A stretch of DNA of 64,000 nt from the NCBI GenBank assembly GCA_017630915.1, contig JAGBUH010000253.1, positions 5,196-69,195 of the forward strand, read 5' to 3'. Numbering within the stretch: position 1 is the stretch's first letter; every line of letters starts with the position of its first letter. This document shows positions 6,904 through 36,081 of this stretch, in pieces. The stretch is from Clostridia bacterium (GTDB lineage Bacteria > Bacillota > Clostridia > Oscillospirales > CAG-382). Below the pieces are notes generated by a model. It did no database searches, was not told the DNA's origin, and saw only the letters and a list, made by a program, of their open reading frames with translations. The position numbers were made by a program, and so were the translations under genes.

Positions 6904-8565
6904 ATGAAAAAATACATTTCTTTTTTTCTCTCGTCAATATTTGTTTTATCGCTTCTCACGATGTCGATTTGCAATGTTTCTGCCGCCACCAATTCGCAAG
7001 GTGTTGAATTTTCGCTCTCCGGCGACCAAACCCATTATATCGTAACAGGTTTCAGCGGAACTTCTACTGCGGTTACAATACCTTCGCAATTCAACGGAAA
7101 ACCCGTCACCAAAATCGGCGAGAGTGCGTTTGAAGATTGTACAACCTTAACAAGCGTTTCTATTCCCGATTCTGTTACCCATATCGGCCCTTATTCTTTT
7201 ACAAACTGCGCCGCAATAAAAAACATCACCATACCCAACTCGGTTATTGAAATCGGTGAATGCGCCTTTTATCTCAGCGGTCTTACCTCCATTTCAATCC
7301 CAGCTTCCGTAACAAAAATTAACGATTCTGCCTTTTTGAGATGTTTTGCAGTTGCAAGCATTACCGTTGCCAACGACAACACTTTATATCACAGCGATGG
7401 TGATTGTTTAATCGAAACGAACTCTAAAACACTTATTTTAGGTTGTAAAAACAGTATAATCCCCTCTAACGGAAGTGTTACCAAAATCGGCAAAACCGCC
7501 TTTTATGAAATCAGCGATATAAAAACAGTTAATATCCCCAACGGCATTACCGAAATCGGCGAAGACGCTTTTTTAAACTGCAAAGGTATTACAAGTGTAA
7601 CTCTCCCGAATTCGCTTAAAACCATTGGCAAAGGCGCGTTTTTCTCCTGCTCGGGTATACAAACCGTTACCTTTGGTAACACCGTTTCAAAAATCGGTGA
7701 TTACGCTTTCCAAGGTTGCACCAACATAACCAATATTACACTTCCCGATTCCGTAACAGACATCGGTTGGGGAACGTTTTACGGTTGTACAAAACTTTTG
7801 AGCGTTAAACTTCCTACCACCTTAGAAGAAATTGATGCAAGCGCATTTGCTAATTGTTCGAATCTTACCACCGTTAACATGCCCGAAAATCTAAAAAAAA
7901 TCGGCGATGATGCATTTTCAAACTGCCCAAAACTCCCCAATGTCACTCTTCCTCAAACTCTCGAAAGCATTGGAGAATACGCATTCAACAACTGTTCTAC
8001 TATTACAGCCATTGAGATCCCCTATACCGTTGAAGAAATAGGCAGATATGCATTTAACAATTGCAACAAACTTGCAGAAATTCGTTGTATGGTCGGCGTT
8101 CAACCCGAAATGTGGGACAACAATTGGCTTAGCGGATGTACAGCAACGGTTACTTGGGGCGATAATTACCAAGCAATTGCAGAATTCAACGCAGTTATAA
8201 ATGCATGTGAATCACTTGACAAAACCGATTATGCCGATGAAGAATGGTCGGCTATTCAAGAGGCGCTTACCAATGCAAAAGCTTATTCCACCAACGGAAA
8301 AACAAGCGACGAAATCAACGCTGAAAAAGCAAAACTCGAAAATGCAATTTTGTCGAATCCCAAACGTTCCGAATTTGGCGATTTAAACGAAGATACGGTC
8401 ATCGATTCGGTTGACTATTTACTTGTCAAACGTGCTTGTTTCGGCACATATACTCTAACCAATATTCAACAAACACGTGCCGATATTGACAGAAGCAATC
8501 AATTAGATTCTACCGACTATTTGCTCTTGAAACGTATCGCATTCGGCACTTTTATCGTTGTTTAG
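6904..8565 (+). CDS. secreted BspA-type leucine-rich-repeat protein with a C-terminal dockerin
   Basis: The signal peptide is MKKYISFFLSSIFVLSLLTMSICNVSA. There are more than 12 repeats of about 23 aa of the form IPxSVTxIGxxAFxxCxxLTSVxLP. The C-terminus carries duplicated Ca-binding segments, DLNEDTVIDSVDYLLVKR and DIDRSNQLDSTDYLLLKR. Confidence 0.85.
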   Translation: MKKYISFFLSSIFVLSLLTMSICNVSAATNSQGVEFSLSGDQTHYIVTGFSGTSTAVTIPSQFNGKPVTKIGESAFEDCTTLTSVSIPDSVTHIGPYSFTNCAAIKNITIPNSVIEIGECAFYLSGLTSISIPASVTKINDSAFLRCFAVASITVANDNTLYHSDGDCLIETNSKTLILGCKNSIIPSNGSVTKIGKTAFYEISDIKTVNIPNGITEIGEDAFLNCKGITSVTLPNSLKTIGKGAFFSCSGIQTVTFGNTVSKIGDYAFQGCTNITNITLPDSVTDIGWGTFYGCTKLLSVKLPTTLEEIDASAFANCSNLTTVNMPENLKKIGDDAFSNCPKLPNVTLPQTLESIGEYAFNNCSTITAIEIPYTVEEIGRYAFNNCNKLAEIRCMVGVQPEMWDNNWLSGCTATVTWGDNYQAIAEFNAVINACESLDKTDYADEEWSAIQEALTNAKAYSTNGKTSDEINAEKAKLENAILSNPKRSEFGDLNEDTVIDSVDYLLVKRACFGTYTLTNIQQTRADIDRSNQLDSTDYLLLKRIAFGTFIVV

Positions 8566-8715: not shown

Positions 8716-8751
8716 ATATTTAAGTATAATTAAATTCAAATGGTGCTTTGT

Positions 8752-9510
8752 ATGGATCTTGGATTAAAGAACAAAAATGTGTTAATAGTGGGTGCCAGTA
8801 AAGGCATCGGGCGAGGAATTGTAAAAGGTTTTGCCGAAGAAAGTGCGAAAATTGTTGCGATAGCGCGTTCCGAAGAACTTTTAAAAGAAGTCGAAAGCGA
8901 AGCTTTACAATCGGGTGCATCTTCTTTCGCTTATGAAGTAAAGGACATTATGGAATGCGATACCCAAAGTTTCGCTGATGAACTTTTACAAAAATACGGC
9001 GTGTTTGACGTTGTTGTTCATAATGTCGGTGGTTCGCTTATCAGCCGTGACCATTTAGGTGGCGCTGATGATTGGAATTACGCTTTGAAATTCAATGCCG
9101 TTGCTGCTATAGATATGAATAGTCGTCTTATTCCTCCGATGATAGAACGCGGGTATGGCAGAGTTATTCATATTTCATCAATTTCTGCGATTATGCTTCG
9201 AGGCAATCCGTTATATGCTTCTGCCAAAGCGTTTTTAAACGCTTACGTAACAACGGTAGGCAGACAGCTTGCTCCGACGGGTGTTGTTTTGTGTTCGGTT
9301 ATGCCCGGCGCCGTTGCTTTTGAAGGCAGCTATTGGGACAAATCCATCAAAGCAGGTGAACCGAAGGTCGAAGATTTTTTACGCCATCATCAAGCGGTTA
9401 ACCGTTTTGGTACCCCCGAAGAAATTGCAAACGCAGTTTTATTTATGGCAAGCGACAAGTCCTCTTTTATGCAAGCGACCAATATCCCGGTTGACGGCGC
9501 TAATATGTAA
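8752..9510 (+). CDS. short-chain dehydrogenase/reductase (SDR)
   Basis: It has the Rossmann motif VGASKGIGRG and the catalytic YASAK motif. The track ORF starts at 8740, but the ATG at 8752 (MDLGLKNKNVLIVG) has a weak GGTG RBS and the usual SDR N-terminal length. The start is uncertain. Confidence 0.85.
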   Translation: MDLGLKNKNVLIVGASKGIGRGIVKGFAEESAKIVAIARSEELLKEVESEALQSGASSFAYEVKDIMECDTQSFADELLQKYGVFDVVVHNVGGSLISRDHLGGADDWNYALKFNAVAAIDMNSRLIPPMIERGYGRVIHISSISAIMLRGNPLYASAKAFLNAYVTTVGRQLAPTGVVLCSVMPGAVAFEGSYWDKSIKAGEPKVEDFLRHHQAVNRFGTPEEIANAVLFMASDKSSFMQATNIPVDGANM

Positions 9511-11368: not shown

Positions 11369-12307
11369 ATGGACAGCAAACAATTAGCTTGGCTTATACG
11401 ACGACACGGCATTGAAATGACGCATCTTTCGGGCGGAAGCCATATCGGTGCAATTCTTTCTGTCGCTGATATAATGGCAGTACTGTATTCTGATATTTTA
11501 AAATACGACACCACCAATCCCAAATGGTGTGACCGCGACCGTTTTATTTTAAGTAAAGGACATGCAGGAGGTTCGGTATATGCAGCTCTTGCCGAATCGG
11601 GTTTTTTCGCAGTTGACGAATTGAAAACCCACTACCAAAATGGAAGCAGACTCTCCGGTCACGTTTCTCATCATTTACCGGGCGTTGATTTTTCAACCGG
11701 TTCGTTAGGACATGGCTTATCCGCCGGCGTTGGCATGGCACTTGCCGCAAAAAAAGATAAAAAACAACACGAGGTTTTTGTTGTATTAGGCGACGGCGAA
11801 TGTAACGAAGGTTCTGTTTGGGAAGCGGCGCAAACAGCAACTCATTTTGGACTTGACAACCTCATTGCCATTGTTGACAACAACAAAATGCAAAGCCTTG
11901 ATTATTGCGTAAACACACTTGACGCAGGTTCTCTTTATGATAAATGGTTCGCTTTCGGCTGGAATACATTTGTCGTTAATGGGCACGACCATGATGCGCT
12001 TCGCGATAAAATGAATACCATAAAAAACGGCAAACCCACCGTAATAATTGCCGAAACCATCAAAGGCAAGGGCGTTTCCTTTATGGAAGAAGATATTCTT
12101 TGGCATTACCGTTTTCCGCACGATGGTTGGGAATATGACTGTGCAGTAAACGAACTTCACAAAATAAAACCTGATGGCGTACAAGACATTTATACTCCGA
12201 ACGGAATTATAAATCCTAAACTTCCTGATGCTAATGAAATCAATAAAGATATTCACCATACCATGTCCGAAACATATAAACCCACTTGGAACAAGCAGGA
12301 GGCATAA
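11369..12307 (+). CDS. transketolase, N-terminal (TPP-binding) subunit
   Basis: 312 aa with the motifs GGSHIGAILSVADIMAVLY, SKGHAG and GDGECNEGSVWEA, which together form the diphosphate-binding motif of split transketolases. Confidence 0.88.
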   Translation: MDSKQLAWLIRRHGIEMTHLSGGSHIGAILSVADIMAVLYSDILKYDTTNPKWCDRDRFILSKGHAGGSVYAALAESGFFAVDELKTHYQNGSRLSGHVSHHLPGVDFSTGSLGHGLSAGVGMALAAKKDKKQHEVFVVLGDGECNEGSVWEAAQTATHFGLDNLIAIVDNNKMQSLDYCVNTLDAGSLYDKWFAFGWNTFVVNGHDHDALRDKMNTIKNGKPTVIIAETIKGKGVSFMEEDILWHYRFPHDGWEYDCAVNELHKIKPDGVQDIYTPNGIINPKLPDANEINKDIHHTMSETYKPTWNKQEA

Positions 12308-12309
12308 TA

Positions 12310-13230
12310 ATGAGAGATACATTCGTTAAAACACTCATAGAACTTGCCAAAAGCAATCCGAATATTGAGCTTATAACAGGCGACCTTGGTTTTGGTGTAT
12401 TAAAACCTTTTTGGGAAGCATTGCCTGATCAATTCATTAACGCAGGTATCGCAGAGCAAAACATGACTTCCCTTGCGGCAGGAATGTCGTTAGAAGGCAA
12501 AACCGTTTTCACATATTCTATTGGTAATTTCCCTACACTACGATGTGTTGAACAAATCAGAAACGACTGCGCATATCACAATGCTAACGTTAAAATCGTT
12601 TGCATAGGCGGCGGTTTTGTTTACGGTTCGCTCGGCATGAGCCACCAAGCAACCGAAGATATTGCTATAATGCGTGCGCTCCCCGATGTTGCTGTATTTG
12701 CGCCATGCGATTCTTTTGAAACGGTCGCTGTAACAAAAGCTATCGCCGAATATCACGGTACGTGTTATCTTCGTCTTGGCAGGGGCGGCGAAAAGCCGAT
12801 CCATAACGGACCGCTTAACGATTTTAAAATTGGCAAAGCTATTAAAATATCCGATGGCGAACGCGTTGCTATATTTTCAACTGGCGCTATATGCGATGAA
12901 ATACTTCAAGCACGCGAAGAATTAAAGTCCAATGGAATCAATCCTGCTGTATATACCTTCCCCACCGTCAAGCCACTTGACAAAGATACTATTATCGATG
13001 TGGCAAATAAATACGATGTTATCGTCACTTGCGAAGAACACAATACCATCGGCGGATTTGGAAGCGCAGTAGCCGAGGTTATTTCGGAATTTGATCATAA
13101 AGCACGCTTACTAAAAATCGGAGTTCCTGATTGTTATTCCACTTATGTTGGAAATCAAAAATACCTTCGCGGACAGTTCGGTTTAGACGGAAAAAGTATC
13201 TCAAAAAAGATTTTGGATGCAATAAAATGA
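12310..13230 (+). CDS. transketolase, C-terminal (pyrimidine-binding) subunit
   Basis: The motifs FINAGIAEQNMTSLAAGMS and GMSHQATEDIAIMR are present. The ATG at 12310 is preceded by a GGAGG RBS, and the track start at 12286 overlaps the previous gene. Confidence 0.88.
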   Translation: MRDTFVKTLIELAKSNPNIELITGDLGFGVLKPFWEALPDQFINAGIAEQNMTSLAAGMSLEGKTVFTYSIGNFPTLRCVEQIRNDCAYHNANVKIVCIGGGFVYGSLGMSHQATEDIAIMRALPDVAVFAPCDSFETVAVTKAIAEYHGTCYLRLGRGGEKPIHNGPLNDFKIGKAIKISDGERVAIFSTGAICDEILQAREELKSNGINPAVYTFPTVKPLDKDTIIDVANKYDVIVTCEEHNTIGGFGSAVAEVISEFDHKARLLKIGVPDCYSTYVGNQKYLRGQFGLDGKSISKKILDAIK

Positions 13231-21040: not shown

Positions 21041-21595
21041 ATGATCACTTCAAAAAAGGATTTAATCAATTATATTGAATCTGACAATTCGTGGTATAAT
21101 CCCAGTGGCCTTAAAAACATTTTAATCGCCAAATTCACCAATTGTCCCTATTTGAAAATAAAAAAGTATTTGTATCTTTTAAGGTATCAGGAATACTATA
21201 TAAACACTGCAAACGGCAACAAAATCAAAGGATTGCTTGGATTATATTACGAACGAAAAAAAAATAAATTGGGTTCTCTCTTAGGAATTGAAATCGGACC
21301 AAATTGTTTCGGTAAAGGTTTGCAAATTTTTCACGCAGGTTCAATAATAGTCAATTCGTCGGTACAGGCTGGAGAAAATTGCAAATTACACGGCGCGAAT
21401 TGCATCGGAAACAACGGAAAAGACGATAAAACTCCCATTTTAGGCAACGGCGTTGATATTGGATACGGCGCTGTATTGATTGGAGATATCTTTATAGCTG
21501 ATGACGTTGTTATCGGTGCTAATGCGCTCGTTAATCATTCTTTTGATACGCCTTCTTCGATAATCGCAGGCGTTCCGGCAAAAATCATCAAATAA
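21041..21595 (+). CDS. serine-acetyltransferase-like hexapeptide O-acetyltransferase
   Basis: An N-terminal helical region is followed by LbH repeats (GNGVDIGYGAVLIGDIFIADDVVIGANALV). The gene contains an A9 run at 21256..21264. Confidence 0.8.
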   Translation: MITSKKDLINYIESDNSWYNPSGLKNILIAKFTNCPYLKIKKYLYLLRYQEYYINTANGNKIKGLLGLYYERKKNKLGSLLGIEIGPNCFGKGLQIFHAGSIIVNSSVQAGENCKLHGANCIGNNGKDDKTPILGNGVDIGYGAVLIGDIFIADDVVIGANALVNHSFDTPSSIIAGVPAKIIK

Positions 21596-21617: not shown

Positions 21618-22634
21618 ATGAAATTTTCTGTAATACTTCCTGCGTTTAACGCCGAAAATACCATTAGAAAAACTCTTTTAAGTTTAATTGGACAAACACA
21701 TCAAAACTTCGAAGTTATAATTATCGATGACGGCTCTACCGATAATACACGTTTAATTTGCGAAGAATTCACTAGTTCTGATAATCGATTTGTATACATA
21801 TTCCAACCCAATTCTGGCGTTTCTAAAGCGCGAAACAATGGAATTGAACACGCTAACGGAGATTACCTTGCTTTTATAGATAGCGATGATGCCTATCATC
21901 CTGATTATTTGTCCGAATTCGTTCGATTGATTGATGGTAATCCCGAATGCGATAATTTCTGGTGCGAATATAATACAATAATTTCAACTGAAACAACGCA
22001 ATCGTATCTTAACGAACATACTGACAATACAGTACGGTATTCCAATCGCAAACAAATAATGACATTACATTCCAATGTCTTAGACGCTGCGCTTTGGAAT
22101 AAGGTTTTCAAAATTGATATTGTCAAAAACAATCGCATTAAAATGCCAGAACATATTTCATTAGGCGAAGACTTAATTTTCAATTTTAGGTTCTTGGATC
22201 ATACTCGCGATAAAATAGCAATTATAAACAAGCCACTTTATAACTATACCAAATCAGTTGACGGTTCGTTGGACAGCAAGTATCACGATAACCTAAAAGA
22301 GATTTATGATTATATCGATAGCGAATTGTTATTTTACTTGAAAAAATGGGATATTTCGGATGAGCAAATGGTGCTTTTCTATAATAGCGTTTTATTCGCG
22401 CAAGAACGTATCCTAAATAATACCTTTCGCCCACAATCTAAATTGTCATATTTTCAAAAAATCAAATACAACAAATCCATATTAAAGAGTTGCAAATTCA
22501 AAGAAGCGTTACTAAAATCAAATTGCGATATTCACCCTGCGTATAAATTCGCTTATAGAATAGCCTCTTGGCATTTGATCAAATTTCTAAATTATTTCTC
22601 ACGGATCAAAAAAATCTTCAAGGATAAATTATGA
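21618..22634 (+). CDS. glycosyltransferase family 2
   Basis: It has SVILPAFNAENTIRKTLLSLIGQTHQNFEVIIIDDGSTDNT and FIDSDDAY. Confidence 0.88.
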   Translation: MKFSVILPAFNAENTIRKTLLSLIGQTHQNFEVIIIDDGSTDNTRLICEEFTSSDNRFVYIFQPNSGVSKARNNGIEHANGDYLAFIDSDDAYHPDYLSEFVRLIDGNPECDNFWCEYNTIISTETTQSYLNEHTDNTVRYSNRKQIMTLHSNVLDAALWNKVFKIDIVKNNRIKMPEHISLGEDLIFNFRFLDHTRDKIAIINKPLYNYTKSVDGSLDSKYHDNLKEIYDYIDSELLFYLKKWDISDEQMVLFYNSVLFAQERILNNTFRPQSKLSYFQKIKYNKSILKSCKFKEALLKSNCDIHPAYKFAYRIASWHLIKFLNYFSRIKKIFKDKL

Positions 22635-23413
22635 ATCTTTTAAAATCAATACAATCTCGAATCATACAACCGTTTCAGCAGAAACATTTTGAATTAACCA
22701 AATATGGCAAGAACATCAAGTTATACGAAAATAAATTCAAAGGCAAACGTTGCTTTATTGTCGCAAACGGACCGAGTTTGCACCCAAACGACTTAGATTT
22801 ACTTCACGATAGGAACGAAATAACATTTGGAATGAACAGAATATATAAAATGTTCGAGCAAACAAAATGGCGTCCTACATTTTATGTATGCGAAGATGAG
22901 TTAATTATAAAAGAGAAACAAACCGAAATCAACGCAATCCCGACAAAAGAAAAATTCATTCCTATTGAATTAAACTGGTGGCACGGAGTTAACGTCACGG
23001 ATGCGTTATATTTCCATCTCAACTATAAAGACGAGGAACGCTTCCCCTTCAGTTTTTCACCCGATATTGCGCATCAAATCGAATGCAGAGGCACAGTCAC
23101 ATTCACATGTATGCAAATTGCCGCATATATGGGTTTTTCGGAGATTTATTTGCTTGGTGTAGACCATAATTATCAAAAAACGATTGATATTGACGGCAAC
23201 GTAGTGTTTGATCCGAATGCCAAGGATTACTTTTGTGAAGGTTATGACACCGACATAAAAGATATCGCAATTCATGATATGGGTAATAATACTCGCGCTT
23301 ATATGGATGCGAAAAAATATTGTGACGAAACTAATAAATCTAAAATTTTCAACGCAACGCGCGGCGGCAAACTTGAAGTTTTCCAAAGAGTTGATTTTGA
23401 CACATTGTTTTGA
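22631..23413 (+). CDS. DUF115 / MptE-like protein (Maf- and GT42-sialyltransferase-like fold); candidate CMP-sugar-acid transferase
   Basis: 260 aa. KGKRCFIVANGPSLHPNDLDLL...ITFGMNRIY resembles the GNGPSL nucleotide-sugar motif of Cst-type and Maf proteins, and YLLGVDHNY is the second conserved block. The start overlaps the upstream stop in an ATGA. Confidence 0.6.
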   Translation: MNLLKSIQSRIIQPFQQKHFELTKYGKNIKLYENKFKGKRCFIVANGPSLHPNDLDLLHDRNEITFGMNRIYKMFEQTKWRPTFYVCEDELIIKEKQTEINAIPTKEKFIPIELNWWHGVNVTDALYFHLNYKDEERFPFSFSPDIAHQIECRGTVTFTCMQIAAYMGFSEIYLLGVDHNYQKTIDIDGNVVFDPNAKDYFCEGYDTDIKDIAIHDMGNNTRAYMDAKKYCDETNKSKIFNATRGGKLEVFQRVDFDTLF

Positions 23414-23427
23414 AAAGGGGTATCAAA

Positions 23428-24285
23428 ATGGAAGAAAACACAAACAAGCAATATCACACGCACATAACATCAAAACACAAATTGTTTTCTCTTAACCTAA
23501 AAGAAGTTTGGCAATACAAAGACCTTATTGTATTGTTTACTAAAAGGTCCTTTACACTTACATACAAACAAACGGTTCTCGGTCCGGCGTGGATATTTTT
23601 AAACCCGTTAATAAGCGGTTTGATCTATGCTTTTGTGTTCGGCGGAATCGCAGGTATTGGAACCGATGGTGTCCCTGCAATATTGTTTTATTTAACAAGT
23701 AATGCGGTTTGGACGTTCTTTGCAGCGTGTGTGAATAAAAATGCGAGTACTTTTACTTCAAATGCAGGTGTTTTTGGTAAGGTTTACTTTCCTCGTTTAA
23801 CCACACCGATATCCAACGTGCTTTCATCGATAATACAGTTTGGCATACAGATATTATTAGTATTAGGCTTTTTAATTTATTATCTTGCCGTTGGCGAAGT
23901 TTCCCCCAATTGGATAGCCTGGATTTTTATTCCTATTGAAATTGTTCATTTGGGTTTGCTTGGACTTGGTGTTGGCATTATTATTTCTAGTCTTACTACT
24001 AAATATCGCGATTTAACCGTACTTGTAACCTTTGGTGTTCAACTTTGGATGTATATTACACCGATTGTCTACCCTATGTCACAACTCAATATGGGCTTGA
24101 TGAAAACCATTCTTATGATCAACCCTGTTACTGCACCCGTTGAAGCGATTAGATATGCAATTCTCGGTCAGGGAACTATCATGCCTATTTATCTTGTAAT
24201 CTCATGGGTTTTAACCATCGCAGTTACCATGTTCGGAATTATGATCTTTAACAAAGTTGAAAAAACCTTTATGGATACGGTCTGA
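23428..24285 (+). CDS. ABC-2 type polysaccharide/teichoic-acid exporter permease (Wzm/TagG-like)
   Basis: Six hydrophobic segments, and it sits next to a Wzt/TagH-type ATPase. I chose the ATG at 23428 because an AAGGGG RBS precedes it; the track start at 23410 is a TTG overlapping the upstream stop. Confidence 0.85.
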   Translation: MEENTNKQYHTHITSKHKLFSLNLKEVWQYKDLIVLFTKRSFTLTYKQTVLGPAWIFLNPLISGLIYAFVFGGIAGIGTDGVPAILFYLTSNAVWTFFAACVNKNASTFTSNAGVFGKVYFPRLTTPISNVLSSIIQFGIQILLVLGFLIYYLAVGEVSPNWIAWIFIPIEIVHLGLLGLGVGIIISSLTTKYRDLTVLVTFGVQLWMYITPIVYPMSQLNMGLMKTILMINPVTAPVEAIRYAILGQGTIMPIYLVISWVLTIAVTMFGIMIFNKVEKTFMDTV

Positions 24286-24294
24286 GGTGTAGTT

Positions 24295-25614
24295 ATGAGT
24301 GAACAAAGTACTAATCGAGAAATAGCAATAAAGCTTTCCAGTGTCAAAAAACAATACAAACTCGGTCAAATTGGTGGTGGCACGCTAACTGCAGATTTAC
24401 AAAGTTGGTGGGCTCGCAGACGCGGAAAAGAAGATCCCAATACAAAAATTGGTCAAGACCAACGTTTAATCGGACAAACCTTTATGGCATTAAACGGTAT
24501 TGATTTGACCGTTTATAAAGGCGAAGCGTTAGGCATCATAGGCGGAAACGGTGCAGGCAAAAGTACTATGTTAAAACTTTTAAGCCGCGTTACCGCCCCC
24601 ACCGAAGGCGAAATAGATATTTACGGTCGTATCACTTCTATGCTCGAAGTCGGCACAGGTTTCAACGGCGAACTGACCGGCCGAGAAAACGTGTATATGA
24701 ATGGCGCAATTTTAGGCATGACTAAAGCCGAAATTGATGCAAAAATGGAAGATATCATCGAGTTTTCAGAAGTTCGCGAATTTATTGATACTCCCGTAAA
24801 GCGTTATTCTTCGGGCATGTATGTTAAACTCGCATTCTCTATCGCCGCACACCTCGATTCTGAAATAATGATCATGGACGAGGTCTTGGCAGTCGGTGAT
24901 ATGGCATTTCAAAAGAAATGTCTTGATAAAATGCGCGAGGTCGCAAAGAAAGAAGGGCGAACCGTTCTATACGTTTCACATAACATGAACACCATTCGCC
25001 AGCTTTGCGATAGATGTGTTGTTTTAGAACAAGGAAAAGTTGTTTTTGAGGGGAATGTTGAGGAGGCAATAACTATATATTTAAACAAAACCGACGACGA
25101 ATTCTCTTGTTTAAATGATTTATCAAAACGAGATAGACCCAAAAGTTCAACCAACAAAGCTTTTATGCAGCAAATTGCATTTCTTAACAAAACCAAAGCG
25201 GTATGCACAAGAGGCGAGTTCTTAAAGATTAAACTTGATTGGATTGCAAAGGCAAATTTATCTGATGTCAAATTTCGAATGATTGTTCGATATAGAGATG
25301 ACTCTCCTGTTGGACTAGTTCAATCGGAAAGTTTAGGCAATTTTTCCGTTGACGAAACACAAATAACAAATCTTGAATTTGATACCAGTATGCTTGCGGA
25401 AGGAAAATACTTTTTCAGCATCGCGCTATTTCAAAGTGACGAAGTTGGAAATAGTGTCATTTTAGACCACGTTACACGCGCTTGTAGTATAGAAATATTA
25501 AATAATACTGAAGATAAGAAAATATTAAACTGGGAACATCGTTGGTGGGGTTCTATTAGATTTCCCAGCTTGAAAATTCTAAATCAAGGATTTATTAAAG
25601 ATGGAAATCATTAA
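24295..25614 (+). CDS. ABC exporter ATPase (Wzt/TagH-like) with a C-terminal beta-rich extension of about 175 aa
   Basis: Walker A is GGNGAGKST, the signature is YSSGMYVKLAF and Walker B is IMIMDEVLAVGD. Residues from about 265 to 439 extend beyond the nucleotide-binding domain, like the Wzt C-terminal glycan-binding domain. Confidence 0.88.
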   Translation: MSEQSTNREIAIKLSSVKKQYKLGQIGGGTLTADLQSWWARRRGKEDPNTKIGQDQRLIGQTFMALNGIDLTVYKGEALGIIGGNGAGKSTMLKLLSRVTAPTEGEIDIYGRITSMLEVGTGFNGELTGRENVYMNGAILGMTKAEIDAKMEDIIEFSEVREFIDTPVKRYSSGMYVKLAFSIAAHLDSEIMIMDEVLAVGDMAFQKKCLDKMREVAKKEGRTVLYVSHNMNTIRQLCDRCVVLEQGKVVFEGNVEEAITIYLNKTDDEFSCLNDLSKRDRPKSSTNKAFMQQIAFLNKTKAVCTRGEFLKIKLDWIAKANLSDVKFRMIVRYRDDSPVGLVQSESLGNFSVDETQITNLEFDTSMLAEGKYFFSIALFQSDEVGNSVILDHVTRACSIEILNNTEDKKILNWEHRWWGSIRFPSLKILNQGFIKDGNH

Positions 25615-26866
25615 ACTGATTAATATACAAAAAAAAGAACATACTCTTGAATATGAGTTCACTACTACAGAAGGTTTAAGGAAATACTTTTCTGGTAAAC
25701 CTTTTAGAATCGAATATACATTTTCTGTAGAATCCATTCCTAATTCTATAGCGGCAGTTCCTTTTGTGTGTAATGTTTTGCCTATAATATGGTTAACAAA
25801 TTCCGTGTTAGAATTAAATGAATTGGACAAGGCCTTTTATGACAGTATACCACAATTCAAACAAGGATATGTTGAAATGTTTCCAGAATGCAATTTTCTT
25901 GGAATTATTTCAGTTAAGTCTTTAGTTGAATGCGATATCCCTTCTACAGAAAAATCCGCCACCTTCTTTTCTGGCGGTCTTGATGCAGTAAATACATTGG
26001 TAATGCATTTGGATGAGAAGCCCGCGCTCATATCAATTTGGGGGTCTGATATCAAGTACGAAAATGCATCTGGTTGGAAAGTTGTTCATGATGAAATATC
26101 CAAAACTGCAAAATTGTATAATCTTAACGATATCGTAATTAGAAGCACATTTCGCGAATTCGACAATGAATACGAACTAGAAAACACAATAAAAATCAAC
26201 TGGTGGCACGACTTAAAGCATGGAATAGGTTTGTTAGGGCACGCAGCTCCATATGTATATGAACAGGGAATATCAAAATTGTATATTGCATCGTCAAACT
26301 GTCCACTAGATAAAGATATCAAGTGCGCATCTCATCCAACAATTGATAATCATGTTCGTTTTGCTCACACAAAAGTAGTTCATGATGGATATGAATATAG
26401 TCGTCAAGACAAAGCACATAATGTAGTTGAATATTCCAAGAAAAGTGGAGAAAAAGTTTCATTACACGTATGTTGGAAAACGCAAACCGGTAACAATTGT
26501 TGCAAGTGCGAAAAATGTTATCGAACGATGCTCGGTATAATTTCCGAGGGTGCGGATCCGGTGGATTTCGGTTTTTTTGAAGCACCCACTTATATACCTA
26601 ATTGCCGTCAATTTCTTATTGGTAAAAGAAATTTGGAAACAAGTATTGCTAAACGGCATTGGACACATATACATAATGCATTTGTAAATAATTTGAAAGT
26701 AATAAAAAAAACGCCATATTGGAAACATGTCAAATGGATCTATAAAAGTGATTTTTCACACCCTGAAACACTAAACATGCCCCCCAAATCATTACGAGAA
26801 TGGCTATCCCGACAAAAGTTTTATCAAAAACTTCACGACATAAAAATTAACATGAAAAAATCATAA
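25601..26866 (+). CDS. uncharacterised protein with a QueC-like PP-loop and a Cys4 cluster
   Basis: 421 aa. The PP-loop-like motif FFSGGLDAVNT is at aa 122-132. The cysteine cluster VCWKTQTGNNCCKCEKCYRTMLG (aa 290-312) aligns by eye with the QueC Zn motif C[YW]..G..CG.C..C..R..G. The ATG lies 14 nt inside the wzt 3' end. Confidence 0.45.
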   Translation: MEIIKLINIQKKEHTLEYEFTTTEGLRKYFSGKPFRIEYTFSVESIPNSIAAVPFVCNVLPIIWLTNSVLELNELDKAFYDSIPQFKQGYVEMFPECNFLGIISVKSLVECDIPSTEKSATFFSGGLDAVNTLVMHLDEKPALISIWGSDIKYENASGWKVVHDEISKTAKLYNLNDIVIRSTFREFDNEYELENTIKINWWHDLKHGIGLLGHAAPYVYEQGISKLYIASSNCPLDKDIKCASHPTIDNHVRFAHTKVVHDGYEYSRQDKAHNVVEYSKKSGEKVSLHVCWKTQTGNNCCKCEKCYRTMLGIISEGADPVDFGFFEAPTYIPNCRQFLIGKRNLETSIAKRHWTHIHNAFVNNLKVIKKTPYWKHVKWIYKSDFSHPETLNMPPKSLREWLSRQKFYQKLHDIKINMKKS

Positions 26867-32347: not shown

Positions 32348-33367
32348 ATGTCGACTAACATCAAACCCAAAATAAGCATAATCGTTCCCGTTTATAATGT
32401 CGAAAAGTACATTCACAAATGTGTTCAAAGTATTTTAGCGCAAACTTTCACAGATTATGAACTGATACTTGTTGACGACGAAAGCCCCGACACCTGCCCT
32501 GCTATATGTGACGAATATGCTACAAAGTATGAGTTTATAAAAGTTGTGCATAAAAAGAACGGCGGTCTTGCTTCCGCAAGAAACGCCGGAATGAAAATTG
32601 CATCGGGTAAATTCATTATGTTTTTCGATAGTGACGACTATGTTAGTAGCGACACTTGTCAACTAATGTACGATGCAATTTCAAAGAATCCAACTGCATG
32701 GGTTCTATCAAATATTCACCGTGTAAACGAAAACGATGAATACGTATCCGGTCTTGATGAAAATCAAGCACTTGAAATATTCAACCAATGCCCCACATAC
32801 TTTGGCGCTTTCAAAATGTCTTTATCTGGTAGCGTTTGTAATAAAATTTACAATATGGATATTATACGCGAGAACAATCTTTGGTTTGACGAAAGTGTAC
32901 GTTTTGGAGAAGATGTTCCTTTTGATTCTCCATATTGCCAACTTTGCTCTGACATTGTATTTTTACCTACGCCTTTGTATTTTTATCGCGTTGTTGATGG
33001 TAGTTTAACACATACTTATCATGCGGATCACCTGGGTGTTTATATTAAGTTGTTTGGAATTCGTTTACCTTTGATTAAAGATGAAGAAATTCCCAAGTTT
33101 TGTGATACATATTTTTATTACTTTACCGACTTGATGAAGAACACCCATGATAAAAGAAATCCGATGTCATTTTTCGAAAAAATGAGATATAATCACAAAA
33201 TGATGAATACAAAAGAGTTTATATTTTGTGCCGAAAATACAACAGGAAATAATGACAGTCCTTTATATATGCGTATTACAAGAATGCATAATTACTATTT
33301 ATTTTGGTTGTTTTTAAAACTGTGCGATATAAAGCAATTATTATTTCGTGACATAGGAGAACAATAA
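32348..33367 (+). CDS. glycosyltransferase family 2
   Basis: It has SIIVPVYNVEKYIHKCVQSILAQTFTDYELILVDDESPDTCP and FFDSDDYV. The start is either 32348 or 32336; neither has a strong RBS. Confidence 0.85.
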   Translation: MSTNIKPKISIIVPVYNVEKYIHKCVQSILAQTFTDYELILVDDESPDTCPAICDEYATKYEFIKVVHKKNGGLASARNAGMKIASGKFIMFFDSDDYVSSDTCQLMYDAISKNPTAWVLSNIHRVNENDEYVSGLDENQALEIFNQCPTYFGAFKMSLSGSVCNKIYNMDIIRENNLWFDESVRFGEDVPFDSPYCQLCSDIVFLPTPLYFYRVVDGSLTHTYHADHLGVYIKLFGIRLPLIKDEEIPKFCDTYFYYFTDLMKNTHDKRNPMSFFEKMRYNHKMMNTKEFIFCAENTTGNNDSPLYMRITRMHNYYLFWLFLKLCDIKQLLFRDIGEQ

Positions 33368-34011
33368 TGAAAACGATTGCTATAATGCCGATAAAATTAA
33401 ATAACGAGCGATTACCCGGAAAGAATACTATGTTATTGGGGGACAAACCGTTATTGCAACATCAGTTAATTGCTGTGCGAGATTCTAATATGGCGGATGA
33501 CATATTTGTTTTTTGCAGTAATGAAGCGGTTTGTGAATATTTACCCGAAGGCGTGAAGTTCTTAAAGCGTTCAGCTGAGCTTGATCTCCCTACTGCAAAT
33601 TTTTCGCAAATCTTTGAAGCGTTTTCGAGCGAAAATCCTGCTGATATTTACGTCTATGTACATGCAACGGCTCCGTTCGTTTCAGTCGAAACGATAAAAG
33701 AGTGCATTTCCGCGGTAGTAAGTGGCGAATATGATTCGGCATTTTGTGCTGTGAAAATCCAAGATTTTCTTTGGAAAGACGGAGAGCCGATGAATTTCGA
33801 TGCGCAAAATATTCCGAGAAGTCAAGACATTGAGCCGATTTTCAGAGAAACATCGGGTGTTTATGTTTTTACAAGTGATGTGTTTAATAAATACCACAGA
33901 CGAATCGGTGTCAATCCCTTTATCAAAGAAGTATCGTTCAAAGAAGCTGTTGACATTAACAATCCCGAAGATTTTCAATTAGCAGAAGTTATGATGAATA
34001 TTAACCTATAA
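33367..34011 (+). CDS. NeuA/KdsB-family cytidylyltransferase (CMP-sugar-acid synthetase type)
   Basis: 214 aa. MKTIAIMPIKLNNERLPGKN is the N-terminal signature of acylneuraminate/Kdo cytidylyltransferases. There is a TAATG overlap with the upstream gene. Confidence 0.8.
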   Translation: MKTIAIMPIKLNNERLPGKNTMLLGDKPLLQHQLIAVRDSNMADDIFVFCSNEAVCEYLPEGVKFLKRSAELDLPTANFSQIFEAFSSENPADIYVYVHATAPFVSVETIKECISAVVSGEYDSAFCAVKIQDFLWKDGEPMNFDAQNIPRSQDIEPIFRETSGVYVFTSDVFNKYHRRIGVNPFIKEVSFKEAVDINNPEDFQLAEVMMNINL

Positions 34012-34021
34012 GGAGTAACTT

Positions 34022-35611
34022 ATGAATTCGGTAAAAGTTTTAGACGTAACATTACGTGACGGCGGTTGCGTTATTGATTTTAATTTCGGACAAGCTTATA
34101 TGGAGCAAATTTTAGGTAATCTTGAAAAATCCGGTGTTGATATCATCGAATTAGGTTATCTTGATGCCAAAAAAGGCACTCCTGAGGGGAGAACTCAATT
34201 TTGTGACGAAAAAGTTGTACGCCAAGGTTTTCTCAAACAGAAGAAACAGGGTACCACCTATGTTGCAATGTTCGACTATGGAAAGTTTGACCCCGATACT
34301 TTGGAGCAATGCGACGGAAACGGCATTGACGGTTTACGTATTGCCTTTCATAAAAAAGACCGTTTGAATATGATTTCAACCGCGAAAAAGGTATTGGAAA
34401 AAGGTTATCAACTGTTTATTCAACCGATGACGATTATGCGTTACAGCGATGAAGAATTGTTGGAACTCATCAACGTTGTTAACACCGAACTTGCAAGAGC
34501 TACTGCCTTTTATGTTGTTGACAGCTTTGGTGAAATGCGTATGAACGACCTTAACCGCGTTGTTCATCTTGTAGACCATAACCTTAACCCTAATATACAA
34601 ATGGGCTTCCATTCCCACAATAATTTGCAGTTATCCTATTCTAACGCCGTTACACTTTTACAATTTTTCTCGTCCCGAAACGTGATAATTGACGCATCTA
34701 TTCTTGGTATGGGCAAAGGTGCAGGTAACCTTAATACAGAGCTTTTCCTTGAACACCTTAATCTTTATTATAACAAGAATTACAAAATAGAACCGCTTCT
34801 CGAAGTTATTGACAAGGTTGTAAACACAATTCGTGCCGAATTCTATTGGGGATATTCGATTGAATATTATCTTTCTTCGGTTAATCACTGTACGCCGAGT
34901 TATGCCGGACACTTTTATAAGAAACACATGTTGCCCGTCGAACAAGTTGCCGAATTGCTTGGCATGATTGCGGAAGAAAAGAAGATATCCTTCGATAAAG
35001 AATATGCCGAACAGTTATATCTTTCCTACAACGCAAGACGTCATGCTAATGACGACCCGACAATTCTTGCCCTTACCGAAAAAATCAAGGGTAAACGTGT
35101 TTTACTTCTCGCCCCGGGCAAACGTTTGACCGAAAAGCAAGAAGAAATCAATGCGCTCATCAACTCCAACGACGTTATTAGTATTTCGCTTAATGCTTTT
35201 GATAAATTTGATACAGATTTTGTTTTAACAACACGTGTCGATGCTTTCAATAATGCATTGCAGCAAAACAAGAAAATTATCGCGACAAGCGGCGTTTGTG
35301 AGTCTTCTTACGAAAATGTCTATTTGATTGACTATGAAAAATGGATTACCATCGAAAATGGAGTAAACGATTCTTCCGGAATAGTTGCCTTGAAACTCAT
35401 GGCAGCTTGTGGTGCTTCTGAAATCATTCTGGCAGGATTTGACGGTTTTTCGGTTGATATTAACAGCAACTATTACGACAAAACCATGCGCCGTCCCGTT
35501 ACCGAAGAGCAAGCAAGACAGCGCAACGAATATTTTAGTACATACGTGCGCAAATTACGCGTAAATACTCCTGTAACATATCTTACAAAATCACTTTACG
35601 AGGAAGAATAA
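34022..35611 (+). CDS. fusion protein: N-terminal DRE-TIM (HMGL-like, DmpG-type) aldolase domain plus C-terminal DUF115/MptE-like domain
   Basis: 529 aa. Residues 1 to about 340 carry VLDVTLRDGG (Asp metal ligand), GFHSHNN (His-x-His ligands) and GMGKGAGNLNTE. Residues from about 345 to 500 carry KGKRVLLLAPGKRL and IILAGFDGF, matching the two blocks of the stand-alone DUF115 protein at 22631. Confidence 0.6.
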   Translation: MNSVKVLDVTLRDGGCVIDFNFGQAYMEQILGNLEKSGVDIIELGYLDAKKGTPEGRTQFCDEKVVRQGFLKQKKQGTTYVAMFDYGKFDPDTLEQCDGNGIDGLRIAFHKKDRLNMISTAKKVLEKGYQLFIQPMTIMRYSDEELLELINVVNTELARATAFYVVDSFGEMRMNDLNRVVHLVDHNLNPNIQMGFHSHNNLQLSYSNAVTLLQFFSSRNVIIDASILGMGKGAGNLNTELFLEHLNLYYNKNYKIEPLLEVIDKVVNTIRAEFYWGYSIEYYLSSVNHCTPSYAGHFYKKHMLPVEQVAELLGMIAEEKKISFDKEYAEQLYLSYNARRHANDDPTILALTEKIKGKRVLLLAPGKRLTEKQEEINALINSNDVISISLNAFDKFDTDFVLTTRVDAFNNALQQNKKIIATSGVCESSYENVYLIDYEKWITIENGVNDSSGIVALKLMAACGASEIILAGFDGFSVDINSNYYDKTMRRPVTEEQARQRNEYFSTYVRKLRVNTPVTYLTKSLYEEE

Positions 35612-36081
35612 TGTCCAAAATAAAGATTCTCGCTATGGATGTTGACGGAACCTTGACTGACGGAAAGATATACGTTGGAGCTCAAGGCGAAGTTATGAAG
35701 GCATTTAACGTAAAAGACGGTTACGGTATTGCTCAACTTCTCCCCAAAATGTCTATAACGCCCGTCATCATTACCGGCCGTAAATCCGAAATTGTTTCCC
35801 GTCGCGCAGAAGAATTGAAAATCAATAACGTTTACCAAGGTGTAAACGACAAGTTAACCAAATTAAGCGAAATTGCTTTTGAATTTGGTGTCACACTTGA
35901 AAACGTCGCATATATCGGTGACGACCTTAATGATATTGAATGCATCGAGCATTGTGGACTTACTGCATGTCCGTCAGATTCCATAAACGAGGTTTTGCGA
36001 ATGGTCGATTATATTTGCCCTTCTTGCGGCGGTGACGGTGCGGTTCGTGAATTTATCGAATATATCTCGGAAATGAACTGA
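35611..36081 (+). CDS. KdsC-family HAD-IIIA sugar-acid-phosphate phosphatase
   Basis: 156 aa with AMDVDGTLTDGKIY, ITGRKSEIV and GDDLNDIE, typical of Kdo-8-P or Kdn/Neu-9-P phosphatases. There is a TAATG overlap with the upstream gene. Confidence 0.8.
   Translation: MSKIKILAMDVDGTLTDGKIYVGAQGEVMKAFNVKDGYGIAQLLPKMSITPVIITGRKSEIVSRRAEELKINNVYQGVNDKLTKLSEIAFEFGVTLENVAYIGDDLNDIECIEHCGLTACPSDSINEVLRMVDYICPSCGGDGAVREFIEYISEMN

Follow-up and report, generated by a model that had tools for sequence, protein, structure and literature searches.

Surface sugars that resemble sialic acid influence how bacteria are recognized by the immune system, how susceptible they are to phages, and how they colonize. 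To our knowledge, all characterized routes to such sugars use phosphoenolpyruvate (PEP)-dependent KdsA or NeuB synthases. YrbI-family phosphatases have Kdo-8-P and Kdn-9-P as substrates, and the substrates that CTP_transf_3 enzymes activate, at the anomeric hydroxyl, are 2-keto-3-deoxy sugar acids. In this work, we analyzed a 64,000-nucleotide stretch of DNA from a Clostridia bacterium of the Oscillospirales (GenBank assembly GCA_017630915.1, contig JAGBUH010000253.1, positions 5,196 to 69,195), referred to here as the window, in which one gene of a polysaccharide cluster encodes a predicted metal-dependent aldolase fused to a C-terminal domain that carries no annotation. Our reading of this gene, which we put forward tentatively, is that it encodes the first committed enzyme of a module leading to a CMP-activated 3-deoxy-2-ulosonic acid and that its C-terminal domain is a cytidine-nucleotide sensor.

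Databases already contain this architecture, and for one member half of the protein has been crystallized. BVU_2661 of Bacteroides vulgatus belongs to the same protein family as the window protein; its aldolase part alone was solved by structural genomics in 2008 and deposited as the "N-terminal domain of a putative aldolase" (PDB 3DXI), a title that reveals an additional C-terminal part in the parent protein. The deposit came without a functional assignment. Our literature searches found no functional study of the fusion family and, as far as they reach, no description of a pyruvate-aldolase route to a CMP-ulosonic acid. An original prediction for this locus, made from the nucleotide sequence, had described the gene as a sugar-acid-forming aldolase fused to a DUF115/GT42-like, transferase-type domain.

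Results

The aldolase domain. Based on profile matches and structure prediction, the N-terminal part of the protein appears to be a metal-dependent DRE-TIM (HMGL-like) aldolase whose nearest relatives are 3DXI and the DmpG-type pyruvate aldolases, which agrees with the original assignment of this half to the HMGL-like enzymes. Residues 1 to ~250 match PF00682 (HMGL-like) with 62 bits against a cutoff of 29 (E = 7.8e-17). When a family profile was compared with the PDB, the best match was 3DXI (E = 1e-32), followed by the DmpG-type entries 8IH7, 1NVM, 4LRS, and 4JN6. DmpG-type pyruvate aldolases have E values of 1e-16 to 1e-18 with this profile, whereas isopropylmalate and homocitrate synthases reach only ~1e-5. 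In the full-chain AlphaFold2 (AF2) model, which has a predicted local distance difference test score (pLDDT) of 85, values are mostly >85 over residues 1 to 256; the barrel fold is matched by Foldseek with a probability of 1.0 to 3dxi, 1nvm, 2zyf, and others, and the ranking by fold follows the same order as the ranking by sequence. All 49 homologs that were aligned have Arg12, Asp13, His197, and His199. These residues align with the DVTLRDG and HAHHN motifs of DmpG, which suggests that Arg12 is the enolate-stabilizing residue and that Asp13, His197, and His199 are the metal ligands. The helical linker that follows the barrel is the counterpart of the helical domain found after the barrel in DmpG-type aldolases, and the Foldseek alignments to 1nvm, 4lrs, and 8ih7 reach ~345 columns with the linker included.

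The protein is nonetheless not an ordinary member of the DmpG group. The best NCBIfam models are those of 4-hydroxy-2-oxovalerate aldolases, and the protein scores below their equivalog cutoffs (94.7 versus 286 bits for TIGR03217 and 104.5 versus 229 bits for NF006049). The catalytic His21 of DmpG, three residues past the metal-binding Asp, is replaced here by Cys16, which is kept in at least 90% of close homologs and is Tyr or His in distant members. No gene for a DmpF-type acylating aldehyde dehydrogenase partner adjoins the window gene, and no such cluster is conserved in 80 related loci.

Integrity and distribution of the fusion. The open reading frame (ORF) of 529 codons is uninterrupted, as originally described. 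An AAGGAG ribosome-binding site lies 7 nt before its ATG, and its TAA stop and the ATG of the next gene share a TAATG overlap. A search of 5.8 billion proteins yielded >7,000 relatives, and the best 120 homologs, which bear only the NCBI name "aldolase catalytic domain-containing protein," are nearly all 526 to 536 aa long, with 99 to 100% query coverage and 58 to 93% identity. Conservation in the alignment of 49 homologs is uninterrupted across the suspected junction near position 35040, where a missed stop codon or frameshift was looked for and is not the case. Based on these full-length homologs and on the conservation across the junction, we conclude that the fusion is a real gene that is widely conserved in gut anaerobes. 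The closest relatives are encoded by Eubacteriales/Oscillospiraceae metagenome-assembled genomes (MAGs) from gut samples, and cultured carriers are Dysosmobacter sp., Lacrimispora algidixylanolytica, Diplocloster hominis, Roseburia yibonii, Guopingia tenuis, and Pseudobutyrivibrio sp.

Searching 1.84 billion representatives with a profile of the C-terminal domain gave 1,020 clusters (50% identity) at an E value of ≤1e-3 and 596 at ≤1e-10. Aldolase sequence is retained in 99 of the best 150 clusters, which shows that the fusion is recurrent; the other 51 are mostly short fragments that start in the linker or inside the domain. We considered whether the domain has stand-alone copies, and most short matches look like pieces of fusion proteins, while four have unrelated N-terminal sequence. 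One 751-aa representative (P0267) is a three-part fusion in which the aldolase and the MptE-like domain are followed by a C-terminal PGP-like HAD phosphatase (DLDGTLADT). The apparent extension of another, 672-aa representative (P0269) was set aside, being an Arg/Pro-rich tail that looks like frameshift read-through.

The C-terminal domain. No Pfam or NCBIfam model matches residues ~341 to 529 at threshold. The domain is an unannotated branch of the MptE/SteA/DUF115 nucleotide-binding superfamily, an assignment to which four independent lines point: sub-threshold Pfam matches, PDB sequence matches, profile-profile alignment, and predicted fold. In the first of these, PF01973 matches the window's domain with 15.6 bits against a cutoff of 34.6 (E = 0.014; profile positions 94 to 165), and it is the only recurrent Pfam family when members are scanned singly (11 of 25 close and 11 of 30 diverse members; best E = 4e-4). 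Second, the best PDB sequence matches of profiles of the domain are MptE (8SD5; E = 0.018 and 0.008) and SteA (9HMZ; E = 0.034), after which there is only noise. The MptE match pairs LLIAPGKSI with IFGAGPSI in a first block and, in a collinear second block, ILLAGFDGF and the last helix and strand with LILGGMDFG and the MptE C terminus.

Third, hhalign aligned the C-domain family with the family of the window's stand-alone DUF115 protein over 126 collinear columns (P = 0.0017). The alignment was obtained in local mode only; the global mode failed. The two pairs of blocks on which the original prediction was built, KGKRVLLLAPGKRL with KGKRCFIVANGPSL and IILAGFDGF with YLLGVDHNY, are in register in this alignment. 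Direct BLASTP of the C-terminal half against the window DUF115 protein gave only two short, weak segments, which are not convincing alone. In a comparison with the GT42 sialyltransferase CstII, SSG...GFDGF pairs with TSG...GIDFY (P = 8.5e-4 over 29 columns); the CstII query matches PDB 1RO7 at an E value of 1.8e-174. Fourth, a separate AlphaFold model of the domain (pLDDT of 86; predicted template modeling score [pTM] of 0.85) has MptE and SteA as its only confident Foldseek neighbors, the top matches being 8sd5, 8sbu, and 9hmz. The values are an E of 1.6e-5, a probability of 1.0, and template modeling (TM) scores of 0.59/0.53 over ~210 columns for MptE 8sd5 and an E of 2.6e-4 with a probability of 1.0 for SteA 9hmz. 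The view that the C-terminal half is a degenerate, remote relative of DUF115/MptE with a nucleotide-binding fold is thus supported by both profiles (P = 0.0017 and sub-threshold PF01973) and fold. The range first given for it, residues ~345 to 500, is slightly short, since the domain extends over ~341 to 529.

Residue conservation was assessed in 135 diverse members that are 22 to 40% identical to the window's domain. In motif 1 (Table 1), P365 is kept in 125 and G366 in 134 of the 135 members. The window has A-P-G-K-R where the family consensus is A/G-P-G-K/N-S, so that the Pro/Gly order differs from that of G-x-G-P-S, and the motif is in register with IFGAGPSI of MptE and IVANGPSL of DUF115. 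In motif 2, G472, D474, and G475 are kept in all 135 members, and D450, upstream of it, is kept in 129. The residues kept in at least 80% of members are D344, P365, G366, N391, S423, Y438, D450, G472, D474, G475, N483, Y484, N502, T522, and Y526. The window's clade departs from most of the family at positions 405, 408, and 424, with Arg, Ala, and Gly in place of Asn, Arg, and Asn. N391 aligns with the Asn at the matching position of the window's DUF115 family, and we take the TSG...GIDFY segment of CstII to be part of its CMP site.

Table 1. Features of the fusion gene and of the genes associated with it in the window
Feature	Coordinates	Strand	Basis
Complete gene, aldolase plus MptE-like domain (529 aa)	34022..35611	+	ATG start, stop codon at 35609-35611 (ORF list)
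Predicted DRE-TIM (HMGL-like) metal-dependent aldolase barrel, aa 1-256	34022..34789	+	PF00682; 3dxi and DmpG matches
All-helical linker, aa 257-340	34790..35041	+	Helices at aa 257-338 in AF2 model
Predicted C-terminal alpha/beta phosphonucleotide-binding domain, MptE/SteA/DUF115 superfamily, aa 341-529	35042..35608	+	AF2, Foldseek, sub-threshold PF01973, profile matches
Motif 1, A364-P365-G366 of LLLAPGKRL	35111..35119	+	Counterpart of GNGPS (DUF115/GT42) and GAGPS (MptE)
Motif 2, G472-F473-D474-G475 of LAGFDGF	35435..35446	+	Counterpart of GVDH (DUF115), GIDFY (CstII), and GMDFG (MptE)
Cytidylyltransferase, CMP-ulosonate synthetase family (CTP_transf_3)	33367..34011	+	PF02348, 75.9 bits; directly upstream of aldolase
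KdsC/YrbI-family HAD phosphatase	35611..36081	+	TIGR01670, 163 bits (cutoff, 107)
Stand-alone DUF115/MptE-like protein	22631..23413	+	PF01973, 55.8 bits (cutoff, 34.6); weak WaaZ (Kdo transferase) match
Wzm/Wzt ABC exporter of polysaccharide cluster	23410..25614	+	ABC2_membrane, ABC_tran, Wzt_C

The polysaccharide cluster of the window. A polysaccharide cluster of ~28 kb (8740-36640) has the aldolase fusion as its penultimate biosynthetic gene; also encoded in it are an initiating sugar transferase, many GT2 and GT4 enzymes, EpsG, two pyruvyl transferases, Wzm/Wzt, and a stand-alone DUF115 protein. The fusion gene lies between the cytidylyltransferase and the KdsC-type phosphatase, a setting that points to a sugar-acid pathway, as originally proposed. 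The cytidylyltransferase is under all NCBIfam equivalog cutoffs (the best model is PseF, then KdsB), and the phosphatase is below the equivalog cutoffs for KdsC and Kdn-9-P phosphatase. The stand-alone DUF115 protein, recognized as such from the start, is a bona fide PF01973 member and is the probable transferase for the CMP-activated sugar. No PEP-dependent KdsA/NeuB-type condensing enzyme was found among the ORFs of the cluster scanned with Pfam or among the scanned neighbor families of related loci, of which not every minor family was scanned. In this module, the place of KdsA/NeuB is occupied by the DRE-TIM aldolase. A phosphonate pathway, which could also combine an HMGL-like enzyme with a cytidylyltransferase, was considered and rejected: no PEP mutase turned up among the scanned ORFs, and the thiamine-dependent genes match transketolase models, not the TPP-enzyme family of phosphonopyruvate decarboxylase.

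Wzt has a C-terminal carbohydrate-binding domain (Wzt_C), and the stand-alone DUF115 gene is directly upstream of wzm. In ABC-transporter-dependent O-antigen systems, the Wzt_C domain recognizes the chain-terminating residue, for example, beta-Kdo in Klebsiella O12. By analogy, the ulosonic acid might cap the chains of this polymer at their ends and in this way control their length and export.

Several other genes in and near the cluster deserve mention. The cluster opens with a short-chain dehydrogenase (8740-9510) and has a transketolase-like enzyme split in two ORFs (TPP-binding N-domain at 11369-12307; Pyr and C domains at 12286-13230), an unusual set for a polysaccharide cluster that suggests modification of a sugar with a two-carbon branch or side chain. 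Since there are two polysaccharide pyruvyl transferases (PF04230; 26877-27968 and 30185-31315), the polymer would also carry pyruvate ketals. A 421-aa ORF directly after wzt (25601-26866) has no Pfam match, and a 184-aa ORF before the GT2 and DUF115 pair (21041-21595) has only a faint left-handed beta-helix match. A further protein, encoded just before the start of the cluster (6904-8565), combines BspA-type leucine-rich repeats with a C-terminal type I dockerin, which implies that the organism has a cohesin-dockerin (cellulosome-like) surface system.

Related loci. The 80 related loci, taken from species genomes, cover Lachnospiraceae, Oscillospiraceae, Bacteroidales, Prevotella, Paludibacteraceae, Treponema, Erysipelotrichaceae, and others, and 46 of them have at least 8 kb on both sides. 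A member of the cytidylyltransferase family is immediately upstream of the aldolase in 65 of the 80. Among the 46 loci with full flanks, 44 have the cytidylyltransferase, 28 have DUF115, 26 have KdsC, and 31 have GT2. A KdsC-type phosphatase is present in 39 to 45 of the 80 loci and is immediately downstream in 27; in 3 loci, a different HAD phosphatase is in the KdsC position. In L012, L042, and L079, an HAD phosphatase of the kind that is fused to the protein in P0267 is encoded by a separate gene. No further biosynthetic enzyme besides the cytidylyltransferase and the phosphatase is conserved across the 80 loci.

A DUF115 homolog lies within 10 kb of the aldolase in about 40 of the 80 loci. 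Homologs of the aldolase fusion and of the stand-alone DUF115 protein are also probably found repeatedly on shared contigs, for example, in Dysosmobacter sp. Sow4_B12. A GT38 polysialyltransferase-like protein (PF07388, 38.6 bits) occurs in 11 loci (L020, L022, L024, L042, L044, L046, L048, L049, L051, L069, and L072) and DUF115 occurs in 38, and the two are never found together. This mutual exclusion suggests that they are alternative transferases, possibly including ones that form a homopolymer. DUF115 Maf proteins transfer Neu5Ac and Kdo (bioRxiv 10.1101/2020.06.03.131540). DUF115 and GT38-like proteins are thus unrelated families of CMP-ulosonate-donor transferases that alternate beside the module. 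In two Treponema MAGs (L075, 2282-3169, and L077, 1891-2730), a TylF-type O-methyltransferase gene lies between the cytidylyltransferase and aldolase genes, which hints at a methylated variant of the sugar in spirochetes; L077 also has two cytidylyltransferase-family ORFs in tandem.

Discussion

We propose that the cytidylyltransferase, the aldolase-MptE-like protein, and the phosphatase make up a small, mobile three-gene module that would supply the cell-wall polysaccharide cluster with a CMP-activated sugar of the Kdo/Kdn/sialic acid type by a route without PEP. The DRE-TIM domain, with a divalent metal held by Asp13, His197, and His199, would form a pyruvate enolate stabilized by Arg12, and the enolate would then add to the aldehyde of a sugar phosphate from central metabolism to give a phosphorylated 4-hydroxy-2-oxo acid. 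With an aldose phosphate as the acceptor, a pyruvate aldolase would give a phosphorylated 3-deoxy-2-ulosonate. The KdsC-type phosphatase would remove the phosphate, the cytidylyltransferase would make the CMP-sugar, and the stand-alone DUF115 protein, or a GT38-like enzyme in other loci, would transfer it. Conserved biosynthetic enzymes beyond these are lacking, which makes a common sugar phosphate or central metabolite the probable acceptor; a dedicated kinase is then not required. The module would parallel KdsA-KdsC-KdsB, with a DRE-TIM aldolase in place of the PEP-dependent synthase. In this scheme, the intact gene, the two folds, the conserved motifs, and the gene neighborhood are observed; the substrates, the product, the reaction direction, and the regulatory role are inferred from them.

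The C-terminal domain would be a minimal phosphonucleotide-binding module of the MptE/SteA/DUF115/GT42 superfamily whose ligand is most likely a cytidine nucleotide or the end product, the CMP-sugar, and which would thereby exert allosteric control over the aldolase. C-terminal regulatory domains of the LeuA type occur in enzymes of the DRE-TIM superfamily, and in sialic acid synthesis CMP-Neu5Ac feeds back on GNE. We consider a regulatory nucleotide sensor to be the most likely role for the domain, with a kinase as its main rival, for four reasons: C-terminal allosteric domains are typical of the DRE-TIM superfamily (LeuA and CimA), the enzyme takes central metabolites at a committed step, the kept residues align with TSG...GIDFY of CstII while N391 matches the Asn of the DUF115 family, and the homologous domain of SteA is nucleotide binding and is a proposed sensor. 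The conserved pocket of SteA superposes on the AMP site of thiamine pyrophosphokinase (TPPK) and on the CMP site of CstII, and SteA, which is stabilized by GDP and UDP, has been proposed to sense cell-wall precursors (PMC12977500). The regulatory and kinase-like roles named as alternatives in the original prediction are the two leading hypotheses. Its other suggestion, substrate channeling in which steps are skipped, finds no support.

Several points weigh against a biosynthetic aldolase with a built-in sensor. Pyruvate aldol additions are reversible, and the anabolic role is assigned from gene context. With Cys16 in place of His21 of DmpG, the chemistry may differ in detail from that of the DmpG-type enzymes, and, among the 46 loci with full flanks, no more than 26 have KdsC. 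Conservation as strict as that of G472, D474, G475, and D450 is more typical of a catalytic than of an allosteric site; the invariant residues of the C-terminal domain would fit an Mg-dependent kinase equally well, and its single best structural neighbor, MptE, is a kinase. The full-chain AF2 model has a pTM of 0.58, with no confident interdomain packing and no visible allosteric interface. Literature searches found no paper on the family, its architecture, 3DXI/BVU_2661, or the combination of an aldolase with a cytidylyltransferase and polysaccharide.

The main rival explanation, which we consider unlikely, is that the C-terminal domain is an active MptE- or TPPK-like kinase or pyrophosphokinase that uses ATP to phosphorylate a free aldose before the aldol step. 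The aldolase would then condense the aldose phosphate with pyruvate, the KdsC-type phosphatase would dephosphorylate the product, and this phosphate cycle would make the reversible aldolase step effectively irreversible. The animal sialic acid pathway has the order GNE kinase, NANS, NANP, and CMAS, that is, kinase, synthase, phosphatase, and cytidylyltransferase, and fusions of consecutive steps are common. The pyrophosphokinase MptE is the best neighbor of the domain in both fold and sequence, the near-invariant D450 and the invariant D474 together with the glycine-rich motif could bind Mg-ATP, and a phosphatase that follows the gene or is fused to it, as in P0267, indicates a phosphorylated product. 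However, no enzyme that supplies a free aldose is conserved in the 80 loci, and common aldose phosphates are already present in the cell. The domain also has an Asn after strand 2 (SLN), as do DUF115 and CstII (FGMN and FRCN), whereas SteA, which resembles TPPK, has Asp-Gly there (GVDG), and the activity documented for the MptE family is pyrophosphoryl transfer to a pterin only, not phosphorylation of a sugar.

Rather less probable is a nonregulatory accessory role, in which the domain would be an oligomerization module, a docking module, for example, for the cytidylyltransferase or phosphatase, or, like the C-terminal domain of NeuB, a binder of the phosphate end of the substrate that extends into the active site of an adjacent subunit. 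DRE-TIM and NeuB-type synthases commonly have C-terminal add-ons that act across the dimer, and the domain is found almost only in the aldolase fusion. The unfixed orientation of the domain in the AF2 monomer is what would be expected if it packs only in an oligomer. A purely structural role, however, does not explain about a dozen conserved polar residues that line the nucleotide pocket of its relatives.

It is improbable that no sugar acid is made at all and that the DRE-TIM domain carries out other C-C chemistry, such as an acyl-CoA Claisen condensation or a decarboxylation, with the C-terminal domain holding a CoA or nucleotide handle. The weaker matches do include other DRE-TIM enzymes, namely, HMG-CoA lyase and the synthases for isopropylmalate, homocitrate, and citramalate, and the catalytic His of DmpG is not conserved; yet the pyruvate aldolases are nearest by the wide margin given above. 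The invariable partner of the protein belongs to CTP_transf_3, a family whose characterized members have 2-keto-3-deoxy sugar acids as the substrates that they activate; the phosphatase belongs to the Kdo-8-P/Kdn-9-P type, and sialyltransferase-like transferases co-occur.

Slightly less credible still is the possibility that the C-terminal domain acts as a CMP-sugar-dependent transferase or hydrolase with the pathway's own product as its substrate, as the label "transferase-type/GT42-like" implied. Both signature blocks of the domain recur in the cluster DUF115 protein and in CstII, and Maf-type DUF115 proteins do transfer Neu5Ac and Kdo. The nearest structures, however, are a kinase (MptE) and a nucleotide sensor (SteA), and the 50 Foldseek matches listed include neither a GT42 nor a Maf structure. 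When the domain was compared with each of its relatives on a common scale (one profile, equal database size), MptE (8SD5) scored 19.1 bits and SteA (9HMZ) scored 17.0, while the best member of the cluster DUF115 family scored 15.3 and CstII scored 9.2, so that the domain is no closer to these transferases than to MptE or SteA. No histidine is conserved in at least 80% of the 135 diverse members and, therefore, there is no counterpart of CstII His188. At ~190 aa, compared with at least 259 aa for GT42, the domain is smaller than any characterized DUF115/GT42 enzyme and has no lid or acceptor region. Most related loci carry a separate DUF115 or GT38-like transferase, which argues that the fused domain does not replace one, and it would be futile for the pathway to hydrolyze what it has just made. 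That the long ORF is an assembly or sequencing artefact joining two genes has next to no probability, since nothing was found to support it and thousands of independent full-length homologs from isolates and metagenomes have the same architecture, conserved through the junction.

More far-reaching than the reading of this one gene, and doubtful in its entirety, is the proposal that a PEP-free pathway to a CMP-activated ulosonic acid for surface glycans, with a class II pyruvate aldolase instead of KdsA/NeuB and a built-in cytidine-nucleotide sensor, has spread horizontally among gut and rumen Clostridia, Bacteroidales, Treponema, and Erysipelotrichaceae. If the fusion family, which numbers at least 1,000 clusters (50% identity) and occurs in many lineages of the gut and rumen, makes an ulosonate from pyruvate, then surveys based on NeuB and KdsA miss a large share of the ulosonic acid producers of the microbiome. 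If the sensor role is true as well, the C-terminal domain, derived from the sialyltransferase/MptE-kinase fold, would add a new kind of allosteric domain to the DRE-TIM superfamily. Defining this domain would in any case improve the annotation of thousands of "aldolase catalytic domain-containing protein" entries. The question is directly testable with three small, soluble proteins and cultured carriers.

Comparison with known systems

The closest described protein, BVU_2661, is the best PDB match by sequence and also by fold (E = 1e-14; TM score of 0.75 on the target), and 3DXI is ~24% identical to the window protein over the barrel. With the DmpG/BphI/HsaF-type aldolases (1NVM, 4LRS, 4JN6, and 8IH7), the protein shares the DRE-TIM barrel plus helical domain, the Asp, two His, and Arg, and, by prediction, aldol chemistry between pyruvate and an aldehyde. 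It differs from them in being far below the equivalog cutoffs, in having Cys for the catalytic His, in having no partner acylating dehydrogenase, and in that its helical domain leads into a fused nucleotide-binding domain. The DmpG-type context is catabolic, whereas here the gene context, a polysaccharide cluster, points to an anabolic role. The LeuA and CimA synthases have the same layout of catalytic barrel, helical linker, and C-terminal add-on, which in those enzymes binds the end product. We take them as the model for the proposed working of the protein. The likeness is in logic only, since the LeuA regulatory domain is unrelated in fold and its ligand is an amino acid.

Among relatives of the C-terminal domain, MptE, the archaeal 6-hydroxymethyl-7,8-dihydropterin pyrophosphokinase (8SD5), is the best match, with collinear G-x-G-P-S-like and G-x-D motifs and a collinear C-terminal helix and strand. 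Its identity to the domain is 15%, PF01973 is below threshold, and the domain is fused to an aldolase with no pterin context; our literature searches found no paper on the MptE structure. SteA of Corynebacteriales (9HMZ and 9HMY), the second-best neighbor in fold and sequence, is a membrane-anchored cell-division regulator that has GVDG after strand 2 where the domain has SLN. The likeness to CstII (GT42) lies in the TSG...GIDFY segment and that to Maf/WaaZ-type proteins lies in the 126 columns aligned with the cluster DUF115 protein; the domain differs from CstII in having no conserved match to His188, no lid, and no acceptor domain, and CstII scores 9.2 bits only.

The pathways to Kdo (KdsA-KdsC-KdsB), Kdn (Kdn-9-P synthase and phosphatase), and Neu5Ac (NANS-NANP-CMAS) have the same three-step logic that we propose for the module: condensation to a phosphorylated ulosonate, dephosphorylation by a YrbI-family phosphatase, and activation by a CTP_transf_3 enzyme, followed by sialyltransferase-like transfer. 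What would set the module apart from all of them is its condensing enzyme, a predicted pyruvate-type DRE-TIM aldolase with an extra domain rather than a PEP-dependent synthase of the KdsA or NeuB type.

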